Virus record (IMG/VR): IMGVR_UViG_3300021963_000041
Location: 1 to 64,000 of that record
DNA length: 64,000 bases
Source: a virus
Direction: 5' to 3' (one strand)
In this document: one piece after another, positions 8,200-52,146 of the stretch
Layout: every line of letters begins with the position of its first letter
Position numbering within the stretch: the stretch's first letter is position 1
The notes under the pieces: model-generated
Database searches by the model: none
Seen by the model: the letters and a program-made list of their open reading frames with translations, nothing else
What the model was told of the DNA's origin: nothing
Program-made: the position numbers and the translations under genes

Positions 8200-8685
8200 T
8201 CAGTTAGTTAGAGTTCCACTAATAATGAGGGAATCGCTTATCAATCCTAGTTTTTTCAGCTGTTTCTCCGAAAAACTCTTATGACCACTGATGCTTGCTG
8301 TACCAGTCGCCTTTGATTCAATTAAGTGCTTCAACTTACTACACTCAGATGGCATTAGCTGATAACTTCGTACGATACGATAACCATCATGTACAGCCAA
8401 GATCATTTGCTCAGTATCTCTAAGCTTCTGCATCTTGTTGTTTGACAACCAATGAAACTGCCAACTACCTCCTTCACGACAACATTTAATCTCAATGTGA
8501 CCCTTCGTGATTGGATTGTAAGCATCTGGACCTTGAGGTTCTGGATTATAGGATACACCATGTTTCTCAGCTGCTAGTAGTTCTAAGTACTTCTGATTGT
8601 ACAACACATCACCTATTCCATTCTCGTCACAGAATTGCTTTATCAATTCCAAACCTTCTAACAACTTTACTGTATCCATTAACAT
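8200..8685 (-). CDS. PD-(D/E)xK endonuclease, PvuII-like restriction enzyme
   Basis: GPDA..IEIK catalytic motif; length and motif order (KLLE..GIGDV..GxDA..ExK..ILAVHDG..SYQL) resemble R.PvuII as recalled. Confidence 0.55.
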   Translation of the reverse strand: MLMDTVKLLEGLELIKQFCDENGIGDVLYNQKYLELLAAEKHGVSYNPEPQGPDAYNPITKGHIEIKCCREGGSWQFHWLSNNKMQKLRDTEQMILAVHDGYRIVRSYQLMPSECSKLKHLIESKATGTASISGHKSFSEKQLKKLGLISDSLIISGTLTN

Positions 8686-17423: not shown

Positions 17424-17640
17424 AAACGTCAGGAGTAGTTGCTGGGTGAATAACCTCTACGATGCGAGATTGGCTTGCTGAGCTGATTTCGAAATCTGCC
17501 ATTGTGCCTTCCATGAATTTTACAACACGGGTTTCTGCTTCGGTTACTGACATTGCATCAACTAGGTAACGCTCTGTTTTAGTTTTCACCTTTCCTTTGT
17601 CATCTTCAAATTTTACTTTGACTGCTACTGTGTAGTTCAT
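17413..17640 (-). CDS. DUF4494-like protein
   Basis: E.YLVDA.S.TEAE motif. Confidence 0.7.
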   Translation of the reverse strand: MNYTVAVKVKFEDDKGKVKTKTERYLVDAMSVTEAETRVVKFMEGTMADFEISSASQSRIVEVIHPATTPDVYGK

Positions 17641-40613: not shown

Positions 40614-42857
40614 TTAAACGTGTCCCTCTCCAAAATTTAATGCGATGTTTGGCTCAGCAATCAATCCAGTTGGAATAGTTACTGTGTTCTCCATGTGATG
40701 CTTAACGATCTTAGATACCTCTTCAGCAATTTCTGCCGGTGCATTCACAACAAACTCATCATGAATCTGCAGCATGATATATGCATCCAATCCCTTCTCT
40801 TTGAACTCTTTGTGGATTGCAATAGCTGATCGGTTCATAATAGATGCAGCTAGTGATTGAATCTGGAAGTTCTTTGAGTTGTTAAGACCGTTCTTATACT
40901 CCATACGCAGTTGCATAATCTTCTGAGTCTGCTCAGGAGTCTTACACATACTCTTCATCATCTTAAACGATCTAGGTTCAATCAAGTTATCCTCGAACTT
41001 CTCATAAATCTGCTTCACACGATCCAAGTGACGAATACGTCCAGTCTTGTTCTTGATATACCCAAACGATTGAGCACGCAAGTGAGTATCACTCATCCAC
41101 TTAGCTAGCTCAGGAAAACCCTCAAGATAACCATCGATCAACTTCTGTGCTTCATTCATGTTAATGTTGAGAGATTGACCAATCTGCCAAGCTCCAGCTC
41201 CATAAGGAATTGCAAGTGCAATACCTTTAGCTCTCTGTCTCAACTCAGGACGCAAAGTCTTCACGAAGTTAGGATCACTCTTCTTAGCTGACATTCCTTT
41301 TAGTTTGAACGCTTGAATAGCAACACGACTATAAAGGTCCTCGTTCTCTAAGAATACGTTGATTAGGTTAGGGTCATTACTTACAGATGCAAACACTCGT
41401 GGCTCTAGTGAAGATTGGTCACAAATAATCAATCGACGACCATCCTCTGCTTTTAAGAAGCTTCGTAGAATATTGTTATACTTTAGTACCAAATCACTCA
41501 CCTCTCCTGGTTCTAATACACGAGGCATTTGCTGACAGTCAGAACTAAAACGTCCTGATGTAGTACCATGCTGCTTAAAGTACCAATAGTAACGACCGTT
41601 CTCGTTCCCATCTAGGAATCGATCAATGTATGCTGAGTTAATCTTGGTCAGTTTGTTGTAGTCACGCAACTTTGCAGCCCATGAATGATCTTTACTAAGA
41701 TGCTCAATCATATCATCGTTGAATTGATCGGTACCTTTGCGAGTCTGACTCATAGGTTTGATCTTCATGTACTTAAATACGATCTCTGCTAACTGCTGCT
41801 TACTACTGATGTTGAGATAGTTTCCTTCTTTCTCTTTCCACATATCCAAACTAATCTTAACAGCATCTCTAGTATCTAAGTCAGCTGGATCACCAGTAGA
41901 TAAGAATCGAGCTACACCATCCGGGTTCTCTGGATTCTCATACTTTTTCAATCGCTCAGCATAGTTACCTCGCTTCTTAGGTGGAAACGACTTTGTTGCT
42001 TTGAACATTACCCACTGCTTAGCAGCTGGAATAGTCATCAGGTCAGATATAATCTCTTGCTCAAGTTTAGCAAGCTCGATGGTGATATCGTTCTTTGTTT
42101 TCTGAATCAACTCCATATCGAGTTCAGTACCCTTCTCTTCCATCTGAATAGTAACAGTCTTGTACAGAGGCATCACCTCATCAACAAAGAAGAAGTCCCA
42201 CAACTCCTGCTCTTTTAGGATTGGTAGGTAGTAAGTCATCACACGAAGAGTTAAGTCAGTATCGGCTGCTGCATAGTTTCCTAGTAGCTGCATATCTGCT
42301 TTGTAAATCTCGTAGTTGTCTTTTGTAGTACTACCACCATTAGCTTTGATATTCTCCTTCATTAGGATCTGCTCCTCGTTGGCTTCTTTCTCGGCATTAA
42401 TACCAAGTTCAGCTTGCAACTCGATTGCAATATCTTTCAAACCAAATGGACCATCCTCTTTGAGAGTATGTCGCAGTAACATCGTATCGCAATAGAGGTC
42501 ATCACGAAGATCAATGCCATAGAAGTTCTTCGTGAACCGAATATCGAACGATCCGTTATGCATTACTAGCTTTTTGCCTTTAAGTAAGTTGATTAGTTGC
42601 TTAGCAACCTCATCACAACTCTTACCATCAATGTAAGAATCTACTAATGCCTGACTATCAGTATCCCAGTATCGTGTTGGGAAGTAATAACCCTCATCGA
42701 TATTTGCAGATACAGAGAAACCAATGATCATTCCTGTTCGAGGATTGACACTGGTTGTCTCAATATCGTATGCGATAATGTTTCCGTTCTTAATATAATT
42801 GGCTAGTTCAACAACACCAGCCATGTCTGTGATAATTTTATATGTTTTCTCCATCAA
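40614..42857 (-). CDS. polA: DNA polymerase family A with 3'-5' exonuclease
   Basis: ExoI YDIETT, ExoII HNGSFD, ExoIII YAAAD; TTSGRFS, motif A CDQSSLEPR, motif B RQRAKGIALAIPYG, motif C IHDE. Confidence 0.95.
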   Translation of the reverse strand: MMEKTYKIITDMAGVVELANYIKNGNIIAYDIETTSVNPRTGMIIGFSVSANIDEGYYFPTRYWDTDSQALVDSYIDGKSCDEVAKQLINLLKGKKLVMHNGSFDIRFTKNFYGIDLRDDLYCDTMLLRHTLKEDGPFGLKDIAIELQAELGINAEKEANEEQILMKENIKANGGSTTKDNYEIYKADMQLLGNYAAADTDLTLRVMTYYLPILKEQELWDFFFVDEVMPLYKTVTIQMEEKGTELDMELIQKTKNDITIELAKLEQEIISDLMTIPAAKQWVMFKATKSFPPKKRGNYAERLKKYENPENPDGVARFLSTGDPADLDTRDAVKISLDMWKEKEGNYLNISSKQQLAEIVFKYMKIKPMSQTRKGTDQFNDDMIEHLSKDHSWAAKLRDYNKLTKINSAYIDRFLDGNENGRYYWYFKQHGTTSGRFSSDCQQMPRVLEPGEVSDLVLKYNNILRSFLKAEDGRRLIICDQSSLEPRVFASVSNDPNLINVFLENEDLYSRVAIQAFKLKGMSAKKSDPNFVKTLRPELRQRAKGIALAIPYGAGAWQIGQSLNINMNEAQKLIDGYLEGFPELAKWMSDTHLRAQSFGYIKNKTGRIRHLDRVKQIYEKFEDNLIEPRSFKMMKSMCKTPEQTQKIMQLRMEYKNGLNNSKNFQIQSLAASIMNRSAIAIHKEFKEKGLDAYIMLQIHDEFVVNAPAEIAEEVSKIVKHHMENTVTIPTGLIAEPNIALNFGEGHV

Positions 42858-43850: not shown

Positions 43851-43891
43851 AAAAAAAAAAATAAAAAAAGCCAACTTTTTATGGTTGGCTT
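43851..43891 (-). terminator. Intrinsic terminator closing the deazaguanine operon
   Basis: AGCCAAC-cataaaaa-GTTGGCT followed by a long T tract. Confidence 0.8.
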
Positions 43892-43912
43892 CTTGACAGG
43901 GTAGAGGTCAGC

Positions 43913-44707
43913 TTATTTGCCGGTCATGCAACTTAGTCGCAAGTACTGCACATTCTTCTTTACTAGCTCCATATCAACATTACTCATGTCGTATGTCTCT
44001 AGGAAGTTGTGTGGAGTTGGAATCCGAGTAGTATGATCTACTCTAAAGTCCTGACCATGTGCAGCCGCTAGTACTGGGAATACTGAGTCTGTGCTGCGCA
44101 TTGCTGGATGATCGTAGTAGGAGAACTCTGTTGGATCACCTTGACCTAAACAGTGGATCGGTTTCAGTAATAGGTTGTGCTCTTTCAAATAGTCATAAGC
44201 CATCCAACGAGCTTCCTTAATACCTTGATCATCTTTGAAGTCTTCTAACCACGCCTGAGGAATTGCAATCTTAGAGAAACCAATTGTGCTAATCCAATCT
44301 TGCTCTAATCCCCATTTGTAAGCTTCTAGCCAATCCTCTTTAGTTTTACCTTGAGGACAGAAGAAGATTTCAGTGCTATCTAACAAGCCTTCAGCTTCCA
44401 TACGGTCGCGGAACTTGATAGCGTTAGCAATCGTAGCATCTTTATCAAACAATACATCTGGTGCGATTACTTCACTAGGTGCTAACTCTTTCACTACGTT
44501 GATCAACACATCTTCAGTCACTAAGGCACGCTCAGCTGCTGAATTGTCTAGTGTGATCCAGCGATCAAGATCCTCATCAATCTGATCATAGATGAACTGT
44601 CTGTACTCTGGTGATTGTACCCACAAATGGGCTAGTACAAACAATCTATCGCCAAGCTTCATCGGCTCTAAATTACTCAAGGGCGATATAACGTATACGT
44701 CCATCAT
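43913..44707 (-). CDS. dpdA: TGT-fold TIM-barrel guanine transglycosylase (DpdA3-like)
   Basis: ITLDNSA, VIAPDV, PQG, IHCLG and STDS motifs in TGT/DpdA order; last gene of the folE/queD/queE operon. Confidence 0.65.
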   Translation of the reverse strand: MMDVYVISPLSNLEPMKLGDRLFVLAHLWVQSPEYRQFIYDQIDEDLDRWITLDNSAAERALVTEDVLINVVKELAPSEVIAPDVLFDKDATIANAIKFRDRMEAEGLLDSTEIFFCPQGKTKEDWLEAYKWGLEQDWISTIGFSKIAIPQAWLEDFKDDQGIKEARWMAYDYLKEHNLLLKPIHCLGQGDPTEFSYYDHPAMRSTDSVFPVLAAAHGQDFRVDHTTRIPTPHNFLETYDMSNVDMELVKKNVQYLRLSCMTGK

Positions 44708-45066
44708 TATAGAGTGATTGAGTAGATTTGTTTGATTACAATTTCGTCTGCATCTACATCCTCTTCTAGTTGTTTTGCTACCGCATAGTCTAGAGATTTT
44801 CCTGGTGTAAGTTCAATCCACATCTCCTCTAAGAATCTAGAAGATTCAATGTTACCAAACTCATCACGTGTTACTTGGAACACTGCTACTTTTACTTGCT
44901 GTCTATTCATATTATTACTTGGATTAAAAATTAAGGAAGTACCACTACTGATAGTAGACCAATTTGTGTTTGGATTTATTGTGGTGGTGTATCCAGCTGT
45001 ATTTGTTGTAAGGATGCAACCGCTAGTGAGGTCACTAGTGGTTCCATAGTGAATTTTAGGCTCCAT
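44707..45066 (-). CDS. Hypothetical protein with Thr-rich N-terminus
   Basis: 119 aa, coupled to folE and the DpdA-like gene. Confidence 0.6.
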   Translation of the reverse strand: MEPKIHYGTTSDLTSGCILTTNTAGYTTTINPNTNWSTISSGTSLIFNPSNNMNRQQVKVAVFQVTRDEFGNIESSRFLEEMWIELTPGKSLDYAVAKQLEEDVDADEIVIKQIYSITL

Positions 45067-45703
45067 AACGACTTTGATCTATAAGGTTAAAAAATTCTTG
45101 TCTTGTACCAATCTCGTTAGTCCAGAAGTATCCTGACATTTGAGATGTCTTCATTACTGATTCATGTTTGATACCACGACACTTAACGCAGTTGTGTTGT
45201 GATTCAATAACTACAGCTACACCGCGATTACCAATACACAAGCGATCAATATGATCATGAATCTGCTTAGTTAATGATTCTTGGATATTTGGACGACGTG
45301 AGTAGAAATCTACAATACGATTCAACTTACTCAATCCAACAACCATATCATCCTTCTCTTTACCTGGAATATATGCTACGTGAGCTACTCCTGAGAATGT
45401 TAGGTTGTGATGTGCACACATACTCATTACTGGAATACGTGTCTGACAAATCAATCCAGTATAACCCTCATCATTAGGGAATGCAGTGATTTCTGGTTCT
45501 GGTGAGATTGATCCTGCGATCAAATCATTAACCCAAGCTTTAGCTACACGATGTGGTGTACGATCACTATGTGGATCAGCTTTCCAATCGAATCCTAATG
45601 CTGTTAAGAATCCACCATAATACTCAGCAGCCTTTTCAATCATCTGCTTTTTCTCCTCTTCTGTACGAGGAATGTTTCCATTTGCTTTTTTAATTAACTC
45701 CAT
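45056..45703 (-). CDS. folE: GTP cyclohydrolase I
   Basis: TPHRVAK, SMCAHH, GLSKL.R, RPNIQE.LT, HNC..CRG. Confidence 0.95.
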   Translation of the reverse strand: MELIKKANGNIPRTEEEKKQMIEKAAEYYGGFLTALGFDWKADPHSDRTPHRVAKAWVNDLIAGSISPEPEITAFPNDEGYTGLICQTRIPVMSMCAHHNLTFSGVAHVAYIPGKEKDDMVVGLSKLNRIVDFYSRRPNIQESLTKQIHDHIDRLCIGNRGVAVVIESQHNCVKCRGIKHESVMKTSQMSGYFWTNEIGTRQEFFNLIDQSRYGA

Positions 45704-45709
45704 CTCTTA

Positions 45710-46177
45710 TTAGTTATTTACTTTAATATACCAATTCTCAAACGCTTTTGCAACACCTCCAAGACCTAACTCCTCATCTCTTGCATCTGCTTCCTCAAAG
45801 CTAAGGTCATCCTTTGCAATCGATCGATCATAGAATCTATATCTACGAACATCGTCAGCAGCTTCTAGCCAAATCATATCAATGTTATCAAAACCAAATT
45901 CATTTACTAAACCCCATACAATACTTGCCTGACGAATACCATCAACAACAACTCTCTCATACTTCTCAATCTCAGCGATTAGTTCTTGAGCAATCTGCAT
46001 ATCAAGGTTCTGTGTGTTTTGTAACTCACTGCGAGTATTCTTACCAGAAACTCTTTTTACAATATCCGACACAGTAATTCGCTTTGCTTTTGTGATGTAA
46101 CATAAAGCATCTGCGTAAGTACTTTTGCCACTGCAGATTTTACCAAATAGTAAAACGATTCTCTTTGTTTGTAACAT
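45710..46177 (-). CDS. Nucleoside monophosphate kinase-like P-loop protein
   Basis: GKICSGKST, VSDIV, VVDGIR, lid RR.R; leaderless promoter at 46182-46212. Confidence 0.75.
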   Translation of the reverse strand: MLQTKRIVLLFGKICSGKSTYADALCYITKAKRITVSDIVKRVSGKNTRSELQNTQNLDMQIAQELIAEIEKYERVVVDGIRQASIVWGLVNEFGFDNIDMIWLEAADDVRRYRFYDRSIAKDDLSFEEADARDEELGLGGVAKAFENWYIKVNN

Positions 46178-46192
46178 GATACGAATATACGA

Positions 46193-46534
46193 CTAAATTT
46201 CTACAATTCCAAAGAATTCTCCATCCTCTGATACAGAACATCTACACAAACCAAAATAGTTTAATAAATCTTCTGCAATCATCTCACAACTCATTGCTCC
46301 AAAGTTGCAGCATCCATAAGCTGGATCGTACCAAGTCTTCGCAATGTGCTGTTTGATTTTATGTTTGAGATCGATAAACTCAATGTCACGATTCCCATGC
46401 GATACCTCCGCTCGGCAAAGGATTTGGAATGTGTGACGATGCAGATGTGCTAAGTACTCTACGTGTGGTAGATTACAATCAGGCCAGTGATGCAGACCTT
46501 CAATATCTAAACGAACTTCTACGAACTTCCTCAT
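46193..46534 (-). CDS. dpdL: QueD paralog, DpdL-like (predicted CDG decarboxylase)
   Basis: T-fold with LxxxHRHxF (LAHLHRHTF), RDIEF, SCE.IA and VSEDGE. Confidence 0.65.
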   Translation of the reverse strand: MRKFVEVRLDIEGLHHWPDCNLPHVEYLAHLHRHTFQILCRAEVSHGNRDIEFIDLKHKIKQHIAKTWYDPAYGCCNFGAMSCEMIAEDLLNYFGLCRCSVSEDGEFFGIVEI

Positions 46535-47016
46535 TACTTTAAGTCTTTATTACCTTGCCATTGGCCGTTATACAATTCTGCTTCATTATTCTCAAACATA
46601 ATGATTTGAGCTACACGAGCACCTTTCTCAATGATGATAGGCTCAGTAACAATCATTACACCACCCATCTCATCTACTTCGAATCCTGGATCATACACAC
46701 CACTAGTGATAATTGCTCCACAACGAAGTACGCTAGAACGATGGCGAATAAAAGCTGTCATATTATTTGGTAACTTACATCCTTGCTCAAATGTTAATGA
46801 GTATGCTCCTGCACTAAGTTTGTAGATGAACTTTCCATCTGCATTAATCATTGGTGCTACTTCGTGGTAATCCTCAACTGCTGTCTTATCTGACATAACA
46901 GCTCCACCCATAATTCGTTTCACACCTTTCAGAGTAAGGTCATACCCTACCTGAGCTCTTGAGCCTTTATTATTAGTTTGTAGTAGCTCTTCTACTTGGA
47001 ATGCGTTTTGTAACAT
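46534..47016 (-). CDS. dCTP deaminase/archaeal-type dUTPase-fold protein
   Basis: GYDLT, RSS..R.G, YDPGF, RVAQ and Y.GQWQ; no obvious deaminase catalytic Glu. Confidence 0.8.
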   Translation of the reverse strand: MLQNAFQVEELLQTNNKGSRAQVGYDLTLKGVKRIMGGAVMSDKTAVEDYHEVAPMINADGKFIYKLSAGAYSLTFEQGCKLPNNMTAFIRHRSSVLRCGAIITSGVYDPGFEVDEMGGVMIVTEPIIIEKGARVAQIIMFENNEAELYNGQWQGNKDLK

Positions 47017-47140
47017 AGTATTTAATTGTGTTTAAATCAATATAAGATAAATTTGGATAGTTTGCAACAAACAAATCTAGAAGATCGAAGTGAGCAAAGC
47101 TATCTGGACATAGTCCTATAAAGTGTAGGATTTCGTGCAT
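46973..47140 (-). CDS. Small protein (55 aa), TAATG-coupled to queE
   Basis: Manual translation MHEILHFIGLCPDSFAHFDLLDLF...; overlaps a promoter and the next start. Confidence 0.35.
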   Translation of the reverse strand: MHEILHFIGLCPDSFAHFDLLDLFVANYPNLSYIDLNTIKYYVTKRIPSRRATTN

Positions 47141-47922
47141 TATACTCCTCGTTTTGTGTCGAATGCAATGATATGCTCACGACCGGTAAAATTATATCCA
47201 TTCTCTGTGCAGAAGTCAATCACCATTGGATAGACTCTGACCAATTCCTCACGATTATCTCCTGGAGGCATGATCCAAGTTTTATTCTTAGGAATACCAA
47301 GCTCAACTCTAAATGCTTCAATCTGTTCCCAAATCTCTGGCATCTCAACTGGATTACATACCGGCTTGAAGTGGTAGTTTGTATGGTATGCGATTGATTG
47401 TTTCATAGCTTCGTAATTCAAACGTAAGCTGTTATGCTTGTCGATCATCTTTTGATCAACTGCGATACCTTTCGGTGTAAGTACTCCCAACTTAGGTACG
47501 CTATTGCTAAACTTAGGACTGAGAGATATGAGACCGATTGGGTAATCTGTTTCAATGAAGTGACTACCTTCTGTCTCCATCGTAATAACAATACCTCTTT
47601 CATTTGCTAGGTGGGTTAATTCGTTAACTAAATCTGGGTGCATTGTTGGTGATCCACCCGTCAACATCATCTCCTTAATGTCTGGACGTTCGTCATACAT
47701 CTTGATGATATCGTTAAAAGTGAAACCACCCTTCTCTGGATGGATACTTGTATACCAAGAGTCACACCAACCACCTTCACCAAACCAACATCTGTGAGTA
47801 CATCCAGTTGTTCTAACTGCTACTGTTGGAAAGCCCGCTCTGGAGCCTTCACTCTGCACACAATAGTATAGTTCTACTATTGGCAGTTTCTTATCGTAAT
47901 CTGTAATTCTTCCTGCTTTCAT
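47140..47922 (-). CDS. queE: 7-carboxy-7-deazaguanine synthase (radical SAM)
   Basis: QSEG, R..GC..RC......WCDS, LTGG.P, ETEG, SPK. Confidence 0.92.
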   Translation of the reverse strand: MKAGRITDYDKKLPIVELYYCVQSEGSRAGFPTVAVRTTGCTHRCWFGEGGWCDSWYTSIHPEKGGFTFNDIIKMYDERPDIKEMMLTGGSPTMHPDLVNELTHLANERGIVITMETEGSHFIETDYPIGLISLSPKFSNSVPKLGVLTPKGIAVDQKMIDKHNSLRLNYEAMKQSIAYHTNYHFKPVCNPVEMPEIWEQIEAFRVELGIPKNKTWIMPPGDNREELVRVYPMVIDFCTENGYNFTGREHIIAFDTKRGV

Positions 47923-47923
47923 A

Positions 47924-48166
47924 TTAAAATGGTAATTCGTCGTCTAAAATGTCTTGTACCGTTGGCTGCTCTGGTTGTGCAGTTTTACCAAAATACTGAT
48001 CCAGAAAGTCTACCGGATACATCATCACTGTTCCGCTATATTTTGGATTACTAATTTCTTGCGATTGTATAACAACTCCTTGAGCTACTGCTGCTGTTGC
48101 TACTCTTTTACCTAGGTCTGAACCTGCTGCATGCCCTAGGTATTCATAAAGTGACTTAAATTCCAT
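47924..48166 (-). CDS. Hypothetical protein
   Basis: SLYEYLG.AAG motif; DDELPF tail resembling an SSB C-terminus. Confidence 0.65.
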   Translation of the reverse strand: MEFKSLYEYLGHAAGSDLGKRVATAAVAQGVVIQSQEISNPKYSGTVMMYPVDFLDQYFGKTAQPEQPTVQDILDDELPF

Positions 48167-48183
48167 AACCTGTGTTTTTTATT

Positions 48184-48462
48184 TTAACTATTTTCTTCAA
48201 TATACTCCAAAACTTCCATATAAGACCCTCTGTGTATATAGATTGGTGTTCCCTCTCCCACATAGGTGTTCCAGACATTATATTCTAGATATTCGATGGC
48301 ATCCTCTTCAGTCATCTCGTCACGCTGCATTAGAACTGTTACCATCCTACTTGCATCATATACCACCTTGCGAGTACCATTTGTATAAGTAATTCCTATG
48401 ACAGCCTCATCAAAGCCGTCAGCGAACATTGTTTGATCATTTGTTGAGCTTTCTGTCGTCAT
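48184..48462 (-). CDS. Conserved phage hypothetical protein
   Basis: ADGFDEA.IG, YD, EEDA.EY.EYN....YVG..TP. Confidence 0.7.
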   Translation of the reverse strand: MTTESSTNDQTMFADGFDEAVIGITYTNGTRKVVYDASRMVTVLMQRDEMTEEDAIEYLEYNVWNTYVGEGTPIYIHRGSYMEVLEYIEENS

Positions 48463-49015
48463 ATTCTAATACTCCTTTTGATTTAGCGTAATTAACAATA
48501 TCCGTAAGATTGGTAGCGTAAAAGTTTTCACGCTCTGCATCTGTAATACTTTCGTGGAATGCCTCCGTAAAACAGTTTGGTGTTTCGTAAATCTTTACAC
48601 CATGAATCTGTAAGCCTGTTTTTGCATCACCATATAGCTCATTTGTGAGCACTTCCATTGCTAAGTAAACTTCTTTAGCAATATTCTCCACTGAAGGGTT
48701 GCAATACTCTCCGTTACCATTCAAACTCATTAACCACAACTTAGTACCATAGTCTCTAGTCGTTTCGATTAGCTTTGTATCATGTGGATTAAGAATCATT
48801 CCATGATCTAGTATATCATCAATCCATTGACAGAATACACGCTTGATCTCTTTGAAGTCGATGGCATAACCAATCTCCTCCATATTTTCAAATGCAAACG
48901 TAAGTTCGTATAAATAAGTGTGTCCATGAATGTTGTAGCATTTCATAAACTCATTCATAACTCGATGTCCTGAATCGAAGTTACCCTTTCTTGTGATGTA
49001 TTGTATTTTGCTCAT
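48437..49015 (-). CDS. queD: 6-carboxytetrahydropterin synthase
   Basis: FDSGHR, C..IHGHTY, IDF, LDH, PSVEN and YET motifs. Confidence 0.92.
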   Translation of the reverse strand: MSKIQYITRKGNFDSGHRVMNEFMKCYNIHGHTYLYELTFAFENMEEIGYAIDFKEIKRVFCQWIDDILDHGMILNPHDTKLIETTRDYGTKLWLMSLNGNGEYCNPSVENIAKEVYLAMEVLTNELYGDAKTGLQIHGVKIYETPNCFTEAFHESITDAERENFYATNLTDIVNYAKSKGVLEYDDRKLNK

Positions 49016-49770: not shown

Positions 49771-51174
49771 TTATTTGAGAGTCAGTCCAACTACAACACC
49801 CTGTAAACCAGAACCATCTGTAAAGGATGGTAATACTATTTTAAGTTTGTCATAAAAATTTGCTAAGCCAGCTCCTGATGCTGGTACTATAAGAATGTTA
49901 TCTTTATTAGCTAATACGAAATGTTCTGGGCCAACACCCTCTCCACCTTCATCACCCCCTTGCGACATATAGTAATCAAAACTAAAAGACACCAATTCTT
50001 TATAGAATCCAGCTCGATCAAGTGAGCCATCTTTTTTAATGTACTTTGCAATCCAACTATAATCGGTAGCTGTTGTTTTTTCAAACAACCCCATAAAACC
50101 TCTTCCAATTGCTTGAGCCAATTCCTCGTTAGATGGTTCACCACCCAAATCTATAAATTGCTTGTTAACTTCTTCAATCACAGTCGGCCATCCAGTTGTC
50201 TGAGAGTTACCATATCTAGCAGTCTCAGTTGGTACCTTTATGCCAGGTTTTTGTTTAGCAGTACCTGATAACGATGTTGTACCTAAACCTAGTTTAGTTG
50301 CTAAAGCCATATAGCCTTTATACAAACCTTCACGGAATCCTTTTGCTGTTCCAAAGCCTTTTTGTCCTCGAAGTCTTTTATTAACACCTCCAACTTCAAA
50401 AGGTTTACCTCCAACAACTAAGTCTCCCATACCGGTTGGTCGTGCACCACCTTTAAATAACATCGCCAACATCACCTCTACAATTCCCAGAGCTGGTGTG
50501 TCTTGCCATTTGTATACGACAAGCTCTTCAAAAGCCTTGTCTGAGAGACCCGTAGGTCCTTGGAAAGTACCTTTGATACTAGCCACTTTATTTAAAAAGC
50601 TTGTATACGATATCGAACGATCTGATAGGTATGCAGCTAACTTCATTTGATCGGTGTTGCCTGCATACATCTTATCAACCACAGCATCCACGTGCTTTGC
50701 ATCTGGTCCTAAAAATTCTGTTATCTTTTCTTCAATGACCTTCTCATAGTTACCCTGTCTCTTGAGTAGGGAAGCTACGCGATCTAATGTCTTTTGTGAA
50801 AAGTTAGAATCAGGATTACCTAGTAACTTTACCAAGTCAGAAGCTGTAATTTGCACATCTTCCTCCTCCCGTATTGGAGTAGGTGATTGCATCTTAATTG
50901 GTGCAACGTTATTGAAGTCCGGCATCTCTGTGATACCATTCTCTTTTAAAATCTCTTGCAGAAGTTTCAATTCTTTTTTACTAGAGAATTTACCATCCAC
51001 CATTGTTGGATACCCCTTTGGCAATCTGTAACACCATTCAGAAAGGATCTCATCATAATCTACATTCAAGGGTTTGCTATAGGTTTTAATCTCCGTAGCA
51101 ATCTTACTCGGTTTGATAGTCTTAAAATGAGAATCCAAATCTATGATGGATTGATTAGAAGTATCTCTCTTCAT
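49771..51174 (-). CDS. Large hypothetical protein, degenerate PD-(D/E)xK-like domain
   Basis: G.VE.ML...GDL.....FEVG (Gly at the Lys position); N-terminal EWCYRLPKGYP module. Confidence 0.55.
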   Translation of the reverse strand: MKRDTSNQSIIDLDSHFKTIKPSKIATEIKTYSKPLNVDYDEILSEWCYRLPKGYPTMVDGKFSSKKELKLLQEILKENGITEMPDFNNVAPIKMQSPTPIREEEDVQITASDLVKLLGNPDSNFSQKTLDRVASLLKRQGNYEKVIEEKITEFLGPDAKHVDAVVDKMYAGNTDQMKLAAYLSDRSISYTSFLNKVASIKGTFQGPTGLSDKAFEELVVYKWQDTPALGIVEVMLAMLFKGGARPTGMGDLVVGGKPFEVGGVNKRLRGQKGFGTAKGFREGLYKGYMALATKLGLGTTSLSGTAKQKPGIKVPTETARYGNSQTTGWPTVIEEVNKQFIDLGGEPSNEELAQAIGRGFMGLFEKTTATDYSWIAKYIKKDGSLDRAGFYKELVSFSFDYYMSQGGDEGGEGVGPEHFVLANKDNILIVPASGAGLANFYDKLKIVLPSFTDGSGLQGVVVGLTLK

Positions 51175-51697
51175 AGTGTAATAAGTCTAGTTTGTTTGAT
51201 ACATCAACTAATTGTGCAGCGTTCAATAAGTCTGAATACTCTGCGATTGATTGTACTTGAATTGTTCTGAACTCAGTTAAGAAATCGAATGTAGGTAAGT
51301 GAGCTGTGAACATAGCAGTTGAAATTTTGTTGTATTTGTCTCCCAAATCAAACTCCATCTCATAAGCTTTATTTACAATATCAATCAAACCATCAAACTT
51401 GCCTGAGAATTTAACTGCTGGTATTACTGGATTCGCATTCCAATCTACTAAGTAGTTTTGAATCTTTACAGCGTGCTCTAATTCTGCATTAGCTTCAGCT
51501 TCAAAGAAGGCAGCTGCTTTTAGATAAGCAACTCCTTTACACCAGTTGGCAGCGTTTCTGTAAAAATAATGTGCTGCATACTCTTCACCTAATGTGCTAT
51601 TCAAAGCATTGACAACATCCTCGTTAAGCGTCTTTGGTAAGAGAACTTGCGATTGTTCGGACGTTACTTTTACTACTGTTGATTGTGGTAATTCCAT
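51155..51697 (-). CDS. Ferritin
   Basis: EE.AA..Y, E...E..HA, E and Q..S..E ferroxidase pattern. Confidence 0.85.
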   Translation of the reverse strand: MELPQSTVVKVTSEQSQVLLPKTLNEDVVNALNSTLGEEYAAHYFYRNAANWCKGVAYLKAAAFFEAEANAELEHAVKIQNYLVDWNANPVIPAVKFSGKFDGLIDIVNKAYEMEFDLGDKYNKISTAMFTAHLPTFDFLTEFRTIQVQSIAEYSDLLNAAQLVDVSNKLDLLHYEERYF

Positions 51698-51720: not shown

Positions 51721-52146
51721 CTAGTTTCCAGAAGATCCAAAACCACCTTCACCTCTTTCGGTTTCTGATAGTGTATTCATCTCCACCAACTCAATATCTG
51801 GATAAGGCATGATAATCATCTGACCCACTCTATCACCAACGCCATAGCGTCTTGATGGAATGCCTGACAATTTGTTAAAGGTGAACTCAATCTCTCCTCG
51901 ATAACCTGAGTCAATAACTCCAACACAATTTGATAGCATGATTTGCTGATTGCGTACTGAGCTTCTTGGAAAGATCAATCCAACATAACCTAGTGGAATC
52001 TCAAACGCCAATCCAGTCTTGTATGTGATTTGGAATCCTTCGTCATTGATGACCTCGACAGCTGTTAAGTCTAATCCAGCATCTCCTGGTTTAGCGTATG
52101 TTGGTATAACTGCGTTGGGGTGTAATTTTTTAACTGCTACTTTCAT
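51721..52146 (-). CDS. dut: Trimeric dUTPase
   Basis: DAGLDL, RSS, GVIDSGYRGE, Q and RGEGGFGSSG motifs. Confidence 0.97.
   Translation of the reverse strand: MKVAVKKLHPNAVIPTYAKPGDAGLDLTAVEVINDEGFQITYKTGLAFEIPLGYVGLIFPRSSVRNQQIMLSNCVGVIDSGYRGEIEFTFNKLSGIPSRRYGVGDRVGQMIIMPYPDIELVEMNTLSETERGEGGFGSSGN

Follow-up and report, generated by a model that had tools for sequence, protein, structure and literature searches.

A viral 7-deazaguanine gene block in which a putative DpdA3 transglycosylase is linked to a kinase-fold protein and a candidate nucleotide pyrophosphatase

Complete replacement of a canonical DNA base is rare, and for guanine its mechanism is unsettled. We analysed a candidate guanine-replacement gene block in the viral record IMGVR_UViG_3300021963_000041 of IMG/VR (127,149 bp, estimated to be 75% complete), the first 64 kb (64,000 nucleotides) of which is referred to as the window. 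In the list of open reading frames (ORFs) every gene between 43913 and 49015 lies on the minus strand, forming a single co-oriented block transcribed in the order QueD, a 92-residue ORF, an 80-residue ORF, QueE, a 55-residue ORF, a DCD/dUTPase-fold gene, a DpdL-type paralogue of QueD, a P-loop protein, FolE, a 119-residue ORF and the 264-residue DpdA3. An original prediction, made from the sequence alone, had recognized QueD, QueE, FolE, a QueD paralogue and a protein of the tRNA-guanine transglycosylase (TGT) fold in this interval, and Pfam, PHROG and AlphaFold2/Foldseek analyses confirm the assignment. The same prediction had the block closed by a terminator and about 1 kb from a DNA polymerase. 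Both features are present: an intrinsic-terminator-like hairpin (43865–43894, minus strand), consisting of an 11-pair stem and a T run, lies just past the DpdA3 stop at the end of the block, and the start of a family A DNA polymerase gene with a 3'-5' exonuclease (PolA; 40614–42857, minus strand; DNA_pol_A, E 9.8e-62; DNA_pol_A_exo1, E 1.3e-11) is 1056 bp away. Terminator-like sites in the region number 14, against 3.1 expected from shuffles.

The last gene of the block (43913–44707, minus strand) encodes a putative DpdA3-type TGT-fold transglycosylase of 264 residues. It matches PHROG 20335 (E 2.8e-51), while a Pfam search gave no family for either DpdA3 or DpdL. The AlphaFold2 model, built with 72 homologues, is a TIM barrel (pLDDT 96.1, pTM 0.93), and all 50 of the 50 matches listed by Foldseek against the PDB are TGTs (probability 1.00, TMq 0.57–0.69); for the Z. 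mobilis tRNA-guanine transglycosylase the probability is 1.00 and TMq 0.59–0.69. TGT and DpdA enzymes require three invariant aspartates, acting as nucleophile, as acid/base and in base recognition, according to PMC10164549. Invariant positions among 73 homologues of the window protein are Y35, D54, D84, R167, H185, G188 and D207. When the family is aligned with E. coli TGT by hhalign (probability 2%, the template being a single sequence), D207 falls on the aspartate of the FDC motif, residue 264, which we take to be the nucleophile, and PQG and HxLG align with IIQG and YLMG. From their positions, D54 and D84 may be the remaining active-site aspartates. The protein is shorter than the tRNA enzymes (~375–386 residues; 375 in E. 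coli TGT) and lacks their C-terminal zinc subdomain. A search of PDB sequences with the DpdA3 profile did not reach TGT; its weak match to a Dlg guanylate-kinase-like domain (E 0.006) was taken as chance.

Its assignment to the DpdA3 subfamily comes from phage homologues. The window protein is 38.5% identical to the founding DpdA3, CGPG_00065 of the Cellulophaga phage phiST (E 1e-48), its family profile finds CPT_0056 of phage CP220 (E 3.4e-41), and an HMM built from the loci surveyed below finds gp206 of phage immuto_2-6A (E 1e-25). Relatives in the phage collection are limited to six records, those of Chryseobacterium phage MA9V-3 (42.6%) and of the Cellulophaga phiST group (38.5%). Among DpdA3-like genes elsewhere, P0181 carries an intein (Intein_splicing, E 2e-22), and in P0122, P0123 and P0172 a LAGLIDADG homing-endonuclease domain is either joined to the gene or inserted in it; inteins and homing endonucleases are typical of essential replication and nucleotide-metabolism genes.

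Three genes of the block would supply the base. QueD (48437–49015, minus strand; 192 residues), the 6-carboxytetrahydropterin (CPH4) synthase, matches Pfam PTPS (E 1.5e-26) and PHROG QueD-like proteins (E 1.4e-27) and has the CxxxHGH motif, read from the translation as CYNIHGH. QueE (47140–47922, minus strand), the radical SAM 7-carboxy-7-deazaguanine (CDG) synthase, matches Radical_SAM (E 6e-8) and PHROG QueE-like proteins (E 3e-46) and is 62% identical to QueE of phiST. FolE (45056–45703, minus strand), GTP cyclohydrolase I, matches Pfam GTP_cyclohydroI (E 5.3e-44) and shares 63% identity (62.9%) with FolE of MA9V-3 and 48% with that of phiST. Together FolE, QueD and QueE convert GTP to CDG, which is established chemistry for these families. 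The window QueD is a divergent allele, having no tblastn match in a 99%-identical relative, L003; there the QueD position (L003:5816–6286) is occupied by a phiST-type QueD of 156 residues, the flanking genes being 95–100% identical to those of the window. The difference looks like a cassette replacement inside the operon.

DpdL (46193–46534, minus strand; 113 residues) is the QueD paralogue. Its LAHLHRHTF sequence fits LxxxHRHxF, which in place of the CxxxHGH of QueD is the signature of DpdL as that motif is defined in PMC10516641, where DpdL is proposed to be the CDG decarboxylase. Across 23 aligned homologues L28, H32, R33, H34 and F36 do not vary, and the window protein is 36.6% identical to CGPG_00067 of phiST and 48.6% to its MA9V-3 homologue. 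Its setting is one with FolE, QueD, QueE and a DpdA present and QueC not found. In MA9V-3, DpdL forms the C-terminal third of an annotated 293-residue coding sequence (L002:6647–7528), the N-terminal 175 residues of which match no family; a similar 354-residue ORF (L034:5001–6065) may be an artefact of mechanical ORF calling.

The absence of QueC and QueF, noted by the original prediction for the window, extends to the whole 127,149-bp record (75% complete), in which QueC, QueF, canonical (Pfam) TGT, MazG and phosphoribosyltransferase (PRTase) had no match and ArcS was not searched for. Moreover, none of 20 related records, of which 11 are at least 90% complete, yielded QueC. Since QueC is absent, no preQ0 can be made. 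This argues against a reading in which the cluster leaves DNA unmodified and boosts the supply of queuosine precursors for host tRNA, a role that had been contemplated for phages carrying genes of the preQ0 pathway in which no DpdA was recognised (PMC6884629). The TGT-like enzyme also has neither the size nor the zinc subdomain of the tRNA enzymes, and the homologous phiST cluster accompanies fully dDG-substituted DNA (PMC10516641). We regard tRNA supply as a very improbable function of the block.

Instead, the block is very probably, on the basis of its genes, a phiST-type module for full replacement of deoxyguanosine (dG) by 2'-deoxy-7-deazaguanosine (dDG). The prediction of this product follows from gene-for-gene homology to the phiST cluster, which likewise justifies the naming of DpdA3 and DpdL as a dDG module. 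In phiST DNA dDG was seen and there was no dG peak, according to Table 1 and the Figure 2 legend of PMC10516641.

Two genes inside the operon are not accounted for by base synthesis. The nucleoside monophosphate (NMP)-kinase-like gene that had been predicted at 45710 (45710–46177, minus strand) encodes an NMP-kinase-fold P-loop protein, a putative 7-deaza-dGMP kinase matching AAA_18 (E 4.8e-8). Its AlphaFold2 model (44 homologues) has a pLDDT of 89.4, and the top Foldseek match is the AMP-bound adenylate-kinase-related protein 3lw7 (E 1.4e-9, TMq 0.73, probability 1.00), followed by adenylate, UMP/CMP and thymidylate kinases. The Walker A motif GxxCSGKS/T (G12, C15, G17, K18) is invariant, as are G80, R82 and Q83 of a DG(I/V)RQ motif and R114, R118 and D123; these resemble the DGFPR motif of the adenylate-kinase NMP site and short-LID RxxxR..DD motifs, to which they may correspond. 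The protein is 32% identical to CGPG_00066 of phiST (tblastn) and 33.6% to the product of the MA9V-3 gene just upstream of DpdA3. A complex prediction for DpdL and the kinase gave no answer (score 0.00) and speaks neither for nor against binding. Two very different kinase types occur in the window's own clade (L004, L006, L009, L011 and others), with 59–99% and 34–45% identity; beside this variable gene, FolE stays 86–94% and DpdL 64–88% identical in the same relatives.

The second gene (46534–47016, minus strand) encodes a candidate nucleotide pyrophosphatase of the DCD/dUTPase fold (Pfam DCD, E 1.1e-13; dUTPase, E 3.7e-6). As had been predicted, it is a second gene of this kind: a canonical trimeric dUTPase is already encoded at 51721–52146 on the minus strand (PF00692, E 1.8e-23), making the 46534 gene an extra paralogue of the fold. 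R93-S94-S95, R98, D109, Q137, Y149 and G151 are invariant in 25 family sequences and F112 nearly so. The phosphate- and sugar-binding motifs typical of the fold are thus retained (RSS, DPGF with its aspartate, AQ and the C-terminal YxGQ), and the best PDB relative of the family by profile is 9w59, a 'probable dUTPase' (E 1.4e-20). The glutamate of the TLEL stretch in the dCTP deaminase 4xjc, which we take to be the catalytic residue of the deaminase, aligns with glycine or alanine in this family. Hence, the DCD-like protein is a candidate pyrophosphatase rather than a deaminase. We propose that it converts dGTP to dGMP, an assignment that would be the weakest link of a pre-replicative reading.

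We surveyed DpdA3 loci for linkage to the kinase and the hydrolase. Among 1.84 billion representatives searched, 1047 were DpdA3 relatives at E up to 1e-3, and a profile scan of IMG/VR yielded 80 loci with 37–99% identity, eight duplicates (L014, L015, L016, L018, L021, L022, L041 and L042) being dropped. Addition of phiST and MA9V-3 gave 82 non-redundant loci, which fall into nine clusters by single linkage at 60% DpdA3 identity; the 69 with at least 3 kb upstream of DpdA3 were taken as evaluable. Survey HMMs were built from the loci themselves and ORFs were called mechanically, and the reverse searches used peptide patterns from cluster-linked members and cover that subfamily only.

Of the 69 evaluable loci, 65 have a kinase-family gene no more than 3 kb from DpdA3, and these represent seven of the nine clusters. 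Two clusters (19 loci) have DpdL and the kinase joined in a single ORF of ~300 residues, with Walker A at residue 142–189 in 16 of 21 of the long ORFs, those where the pattern matched. The reverse scan of IMG/VR with the kinase family found 73 loci, five of them too short. DpdA3 is within 5 kb in 63 of the remaining 68 and elsewhere in the record in two more; the last three are fragments 5–19% complete. The kinase family is therefore essentially confined to DpdA3 phages. CGPG_00066 was left unassigned in PMC10516641, which reported no homologues in other deazaguanine phages. That statement no longer holds, since metagenomic homologues are present in most of the DpdA3/DpdL loci examined here.

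Linkage to a hydrolase takes more than one form. Either a DCD-like or a phiST-type MazG gene lies inside the DpdA3 locus in five of the nine clusters, and the two never occur together in the 10 records screened for both families. A sixth cluster has a MazG homologue directly after QueD-QueE-FolE, ~30 kb away (one complete genome, E 1.4e-44), and a Pfam MazG match is found in five of its six records. From the other direction, a search with the DCD-like family gave 80 loci, 78 of which hold QueD, QueE, FolE or DpdA3 and 66 of which hold DpdA3 itself. Co-occurrence of the kinase and the DCD-fold gene with the cluster, named by the original prediction as a check, is thus borne out: for both genes the link to DpdA3 is tight and holds in either direction of search.

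DpdL and the kinase family are lacking in 28 of the 66 DCD-like loci with DpdA3. Two of these, L207 and L213, were examined and are of the fdPreQ1 type, with DpdA3, a formyltransferase, an AAA_28 kinase, QueF, QueC, FolE, the DCD-like gene and then a large ORF; QueE also belongs to the set, but in L213 none was seen between QueC and FolE. L207 further contains a PRTase (L207:4726–5262; Pribosyltran, E 5e-26). A type I PRTase inside fdPreQ1-type DpdA3 clusters could recycle released guanine or make a deaza-ribonucleotide.

The arrangement recurs in all three phages with measured 100% guanine replacement, phiST, CP220 and immuto_2-6A, each of which encodes a P-loop kinase and a nucleotide hydrolase next to DpdA3. 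In phiST (dDG, 100% replaced) MazG, DpdL, the kinase homologue and DpdA3 stand together. In CP220 (dADG) CPT_0055, upstream of the DpdA3 gene CPT_0056, encodes an HD::P-loop fusion (HD, E 8.8e-8; AAA_33, E 8.1e-13), and CPT_0057, downstream, an AAA_28 P-loop protein. The P-loop domain of CPT_0055 is a distant relative of the window kinase (hhalign probability 68%, E 4.8e-5), with CSGKSTY and SDI(V/W)R as common motifs. The immuto_2-6A (fdPreQ1) set comprises a PRTase (gp211, L094:11421–11816, E 1e-8), FolE, DUF4494, a PRA-PH (MazG-superfamily) hydrolase, DpdA3, the DpdN formyltransferase, an AAA_28 kinase annotated as a thymidylate kinase, QueF and PolA. Immuto gp203 was rejected as an orthologue of the window kinase (hhalign probability 0.8%) and is an analogue.

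More distant relatives carry fusions of their own. In P0220 and P0267 a thymidylate-kinase-like N-terminus, whose Pfam hits score below gathering, precedes a DpdA3-like C-terminus; lacking BLASTP homology, these N-termini were likewise rejected as orthologues of the window kinase and are analogues. P0267 has no relative in viral contigs. A relative of P0220 (L096:7533–9480), distantly DpdA3-like, is flanked on one side by MazG and on the other by a YhhQ/Vut_1 transporter gene, and a Pol III alpha polymerase is encoded alongside. Transporters of the Vut_1/YhhQ family take up queuosine precursors; with genes for base synthesis missing from its surroundings, L096 would represent a salvage form of the system. 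ACP17, which has DpdL, was not counted: its DpdA is weakly DpdA3-like (E 9.6e-4) and it has no kinase-family homologue.

Altogether, DpdA3 has recruited four unrelated hydrolase folds (DCD, MazG, PRA-PH and HD) and at least three types of P-loop kinase, some of them fused to enzymes of the pathway, which suggests generic chemical steps on free nucleotides. The literature searched did not contain this package of DpdA3, kinase and hydrolase, which is conserved, linked in both directions and in part fused, and which speaks against the current model; the cluster itself is a further member of the phiST kind, with a DCD-fold hydrolase for MazG. We therefore lean, if only slightly, towards entry of the base into DNA before replication, through the nucleotide pool. 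As to the more specific proposition that DpdA3 is the first TGT-fold enzyme to exchange a base on a free deoxynucleotide, acting in a T4-like pathway together with an NMP kinase of its own and a dGTP hydrolase that can be exchanged for another, we hold the chances to be about even.

Such a pathway would run as follows. The DCD-fold pyrophosphatase would convert dGTP to dGMP, removing the competitor and supplying the acceptor, and DpdA3 would swap guanine for the deazaguanine base on free dGMP (in CP220 perhaps on a nucleoside). DpdL would decarboxylate CDG, before or after the exchange; the DpdL::kinase fusions are a hint that it acts on a nucleotide. The NMP-kinase-fold protein would phosphorylate 7-deaza-dGMP, a host nucleoside diphosphate (NDP) kinase would produce 7-deaza-dGTP, and the adjacent PolA would incorporate it. 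Released guanine could return via GTP into FolE. The two kinase domains and the HD domain of CP220 would also fit an exchange at the nucleoside level. Indirect support for the pool route is that free ADG nucleoside was seen in CP220-infected cells according to PMC10516641.

The published alternative, proposed by the discoverers of DpdA3 (PMC10516641), is post-replicative exchange. PolA would make guanine-containing DNA and DpdA3 would swap every guanine within the polymer, leaving the kinase and the DCD-fold protein as nucleotide-supply or house-cleaning enzymes, or the P-loop protein as a DpdB-like ATPase helper. DpdA3 does keep the TGT fold and three invariant aspartates, and the presence of a DpdA in every modified phage is argued in the same paper to indicate a post-replication event. 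Post-replicative exchange nevertheless leaves a nucleotide hydrolase and an NMP-kinase fold without an obvious job, although both are reciprocally linked to DpdA3. Non-homologous replacement of either fits a generic chemical role better than that of a specific protein partner, and fusions join the kinase to DpdL or, among distant relatives, to a DpdA3-like domain. DpdL and DpdA3 alone gave no dDG in E. coli (PMC10516641), a failed two-gene reconstitution that may be explained, and its missing genes named, by the NMP kinase and hydrolase with which DpdA3 travels. Full replacement is moreover restricted to phages with the DpdA3 subfamily, other subfamilies reaching at most 30% (PMC10516641). We consider exchange within the polymer possible, though rather unlikely.

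Several points weigh against a pre-replicative route. The charge of DpdA3 is uninformative: an acidic protein (pI 4.67) was considered as an argument against DNA binding, and this was rejected because the family spans pI 4.5–9.6 with a median of 5.8. To our knowledge, TGT and DpdA enzymes with a measured substrate all act on a polymer, tRNA or DNA, and none on a free nucleotide. The dUTPase/DCD fold, as far as we know, normally holds pyrimidines, and we see no sign of a purine pocket here. Phage replication modules often include kinases and NTP hydrolases, and common descent links many counted loci. The kinase family was not found in the records of three of the 69 evaluable loci, L047, L048 and L089 (36–68% complete; two of the nine clusters), which have DpdA3 and DpdL and count in favour of post-replicative exchange. 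Two clusters are without a hydrolase within 8 kb, and the T4-like cluster has a DCD-family gene only in its one complete genome, far from DpdA3, its fragments having none. Finally, bacterial DpdA needs ATP hydrolysis by DpdB (PMC10164549), and so the P-loop neighbour could be a helper ATPase rather than a kinase, although it resembles AMP-bound small-molecule kinases and not the ParB-like DpdB.

A mixed route would give the kinase and the hydrolase a role while keeping DpdA3 on DNA: most dDG would enter as 7-deaza-dGTP made by another path, for example from base and phosphoribosyl pyrophosphate via a PRTase, a kinase and ribonucleotide reductase, and DpdA3 would replace only residual or host-derived guanines in DNA. 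The PRTases of the fdPreQ1-type DpdA3 clusters (immuto gp211 and L207) are consistent with it. The phage record, however, contains no PRTase that we could find in its 127 kb, nor is one annotated in the phiST cluster, so that the route would need a host PRTase, and a ribonucleotide path would put the deaza base into RNA. This reading seems to us improbable.

Pre-replicative entry, as the original prediction had inferred, is thus strengthened, not proven, by the reciprocal linkage of the kinase and the DCD-fold gene to DpdA3. Its description of the route as new stands only in part. Use of modified dGTP by the polymerase was proposed for Campylobacter phages in 2019 (PMC6884629), an idea later set aside for post-replicative exchange (PMC10516641). 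No nucleotide-level route for DpdA3 was found in the literature searched; supplementary tables S1, S7 and S8 of PMC10516641 may list some of the neighbours.

If true, the pathway would be a fourth pre-replicative logic of base replacement and would extend the TGT fold to a class of substrates new to it. The genes minimally needed to make fully 7-deazaguanine DNA in vivo would be defined as well, and it would be clear why 100% replacement occurs only in DpdA3 phages, whatever the final derivative (dDG, dADG or fdPreQ1). Fully substituted DNA of this kind withstands many restriction enzymes and has uses in sequencing and synthetic biology.

The remaining features of the block are small ORFs, all on the minus strand. 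The 92-residue ORF (48184–48462) matches PHROG 13182 (E 7.6e-24) and no Pfam family, with phmmer homologues in 9 of 90 loci. No Pfam or PHROG family matched the 80-residue ORF (47924–48166; phmmer homologues in 21 of 90 loci) or the 119-residue ORF (44707–45066; 10 of 90, close relatives only). The 55-residue ORF (46973–47140), taken from the ORF list, overlaps the start of the DCD-like gene and has phmmer homologues in 18 of 90 loci. Outside the block, a ferritin-like protein (51155–51697, minus strand; PF00210, E 2.3e-20) adjoins the canonical dUTPase. A 161-residue ORF (8200–8685, minus strand) has no Pfam family at E up to 0.05; if a nuclease, it may cut guanine-containing host DNA and spare a deaza genome. 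A partial match to DUF4494 (17437–17628, minus strand; E 2.3e-13) lies elsewhere in the window. This domain recurs with the system: in one lineage it directly follows DpdA3 (L072:8774–9202, E 3.8e-17), and in immuto_2-6A (L094:12610–12807) its neighbours are FolE and the PRA-PH hydrolase.

Among known systems the block is most like that of phiST (CGPG_00064–00071), where QueD, QueE, FolE, DpdL, the P-loop protein CGPG_00066 and DpdA3 are co-oriented near the polymerase without QueC, the proteins being 32–62% identical to those of the window. phiST differs in having a MazG-type pyrophosphatase (CGPG_00068) where the window has the DCD/dUTPase-fold protein, which had no tblastn match in phiST, and in gene order, FolE sitting between the kinase and DpdA3 in the window. 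A megablast search of the phage collection with the block gave no match; at the protein level the closest isolate there is MA9V-3 (PV245944.1), with identities of 42.6% for DpdA3, 48.6% for DpdL, 33.6% for the kinase, 38.1% for the DCD-like protein and 62.9% for FolE. Its genes are spread over ~8 kb with thyA and recA interspersed, and all are annotated as hypothetical.

CP220 and immuto_2-6A differ further from the window, having other final bases, no DpdL and a second kinase of AAA_28 type. For the hydrolase, CP220 has an HD domain joined to its kinase and immuto_2-6A has a PRA-PH protein; clusters of the immuto type also contain QueC, QueF, the DpdN formyltransferase and a PRTase. Bacterial DpdA, as described for Salmonella Montevideo in PMC10164549, is a TGT-like TIM barrel in which three aspartates have roles and guanine is exchanged for a 7-deazaguanine; its action on DNA is site-specific and low-level, it inserts preQ0, and it needs the ParB-like ATPase DpdB. 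The window DpdA3, in contrast, is a minimal 264-residue barrel with no Pfam TGT match and a partner of the NMP-kinase fold.

The closest parallels in logic are with systems that install their bases before replication. In these a canonical dNTP is destroyed, a monophosphate is modified and re-phosphorylated, and the polymerase inserts the product, giving full base replacement. T4 does so with a dCTPase (gp56), a dCMP hydroxymethylase (gp42) and a dNMP kinase (gp1), and the Z-genome phage S-2L has DatZ, MazZ and PurZ. Candidates for a dNTP hydrolase, a monophosphate modifier and a dNMP kinase are likewise adjacent in the window, and are conserved or analogously replaced across DpdA3 phages. The difference lies in the modifier, which is thymidylate-synthase-like or adenylosuccinate-synthetase-like in T4 and S-2L, whereas here it would be a putative base-exchanging protein of the TGT fold.

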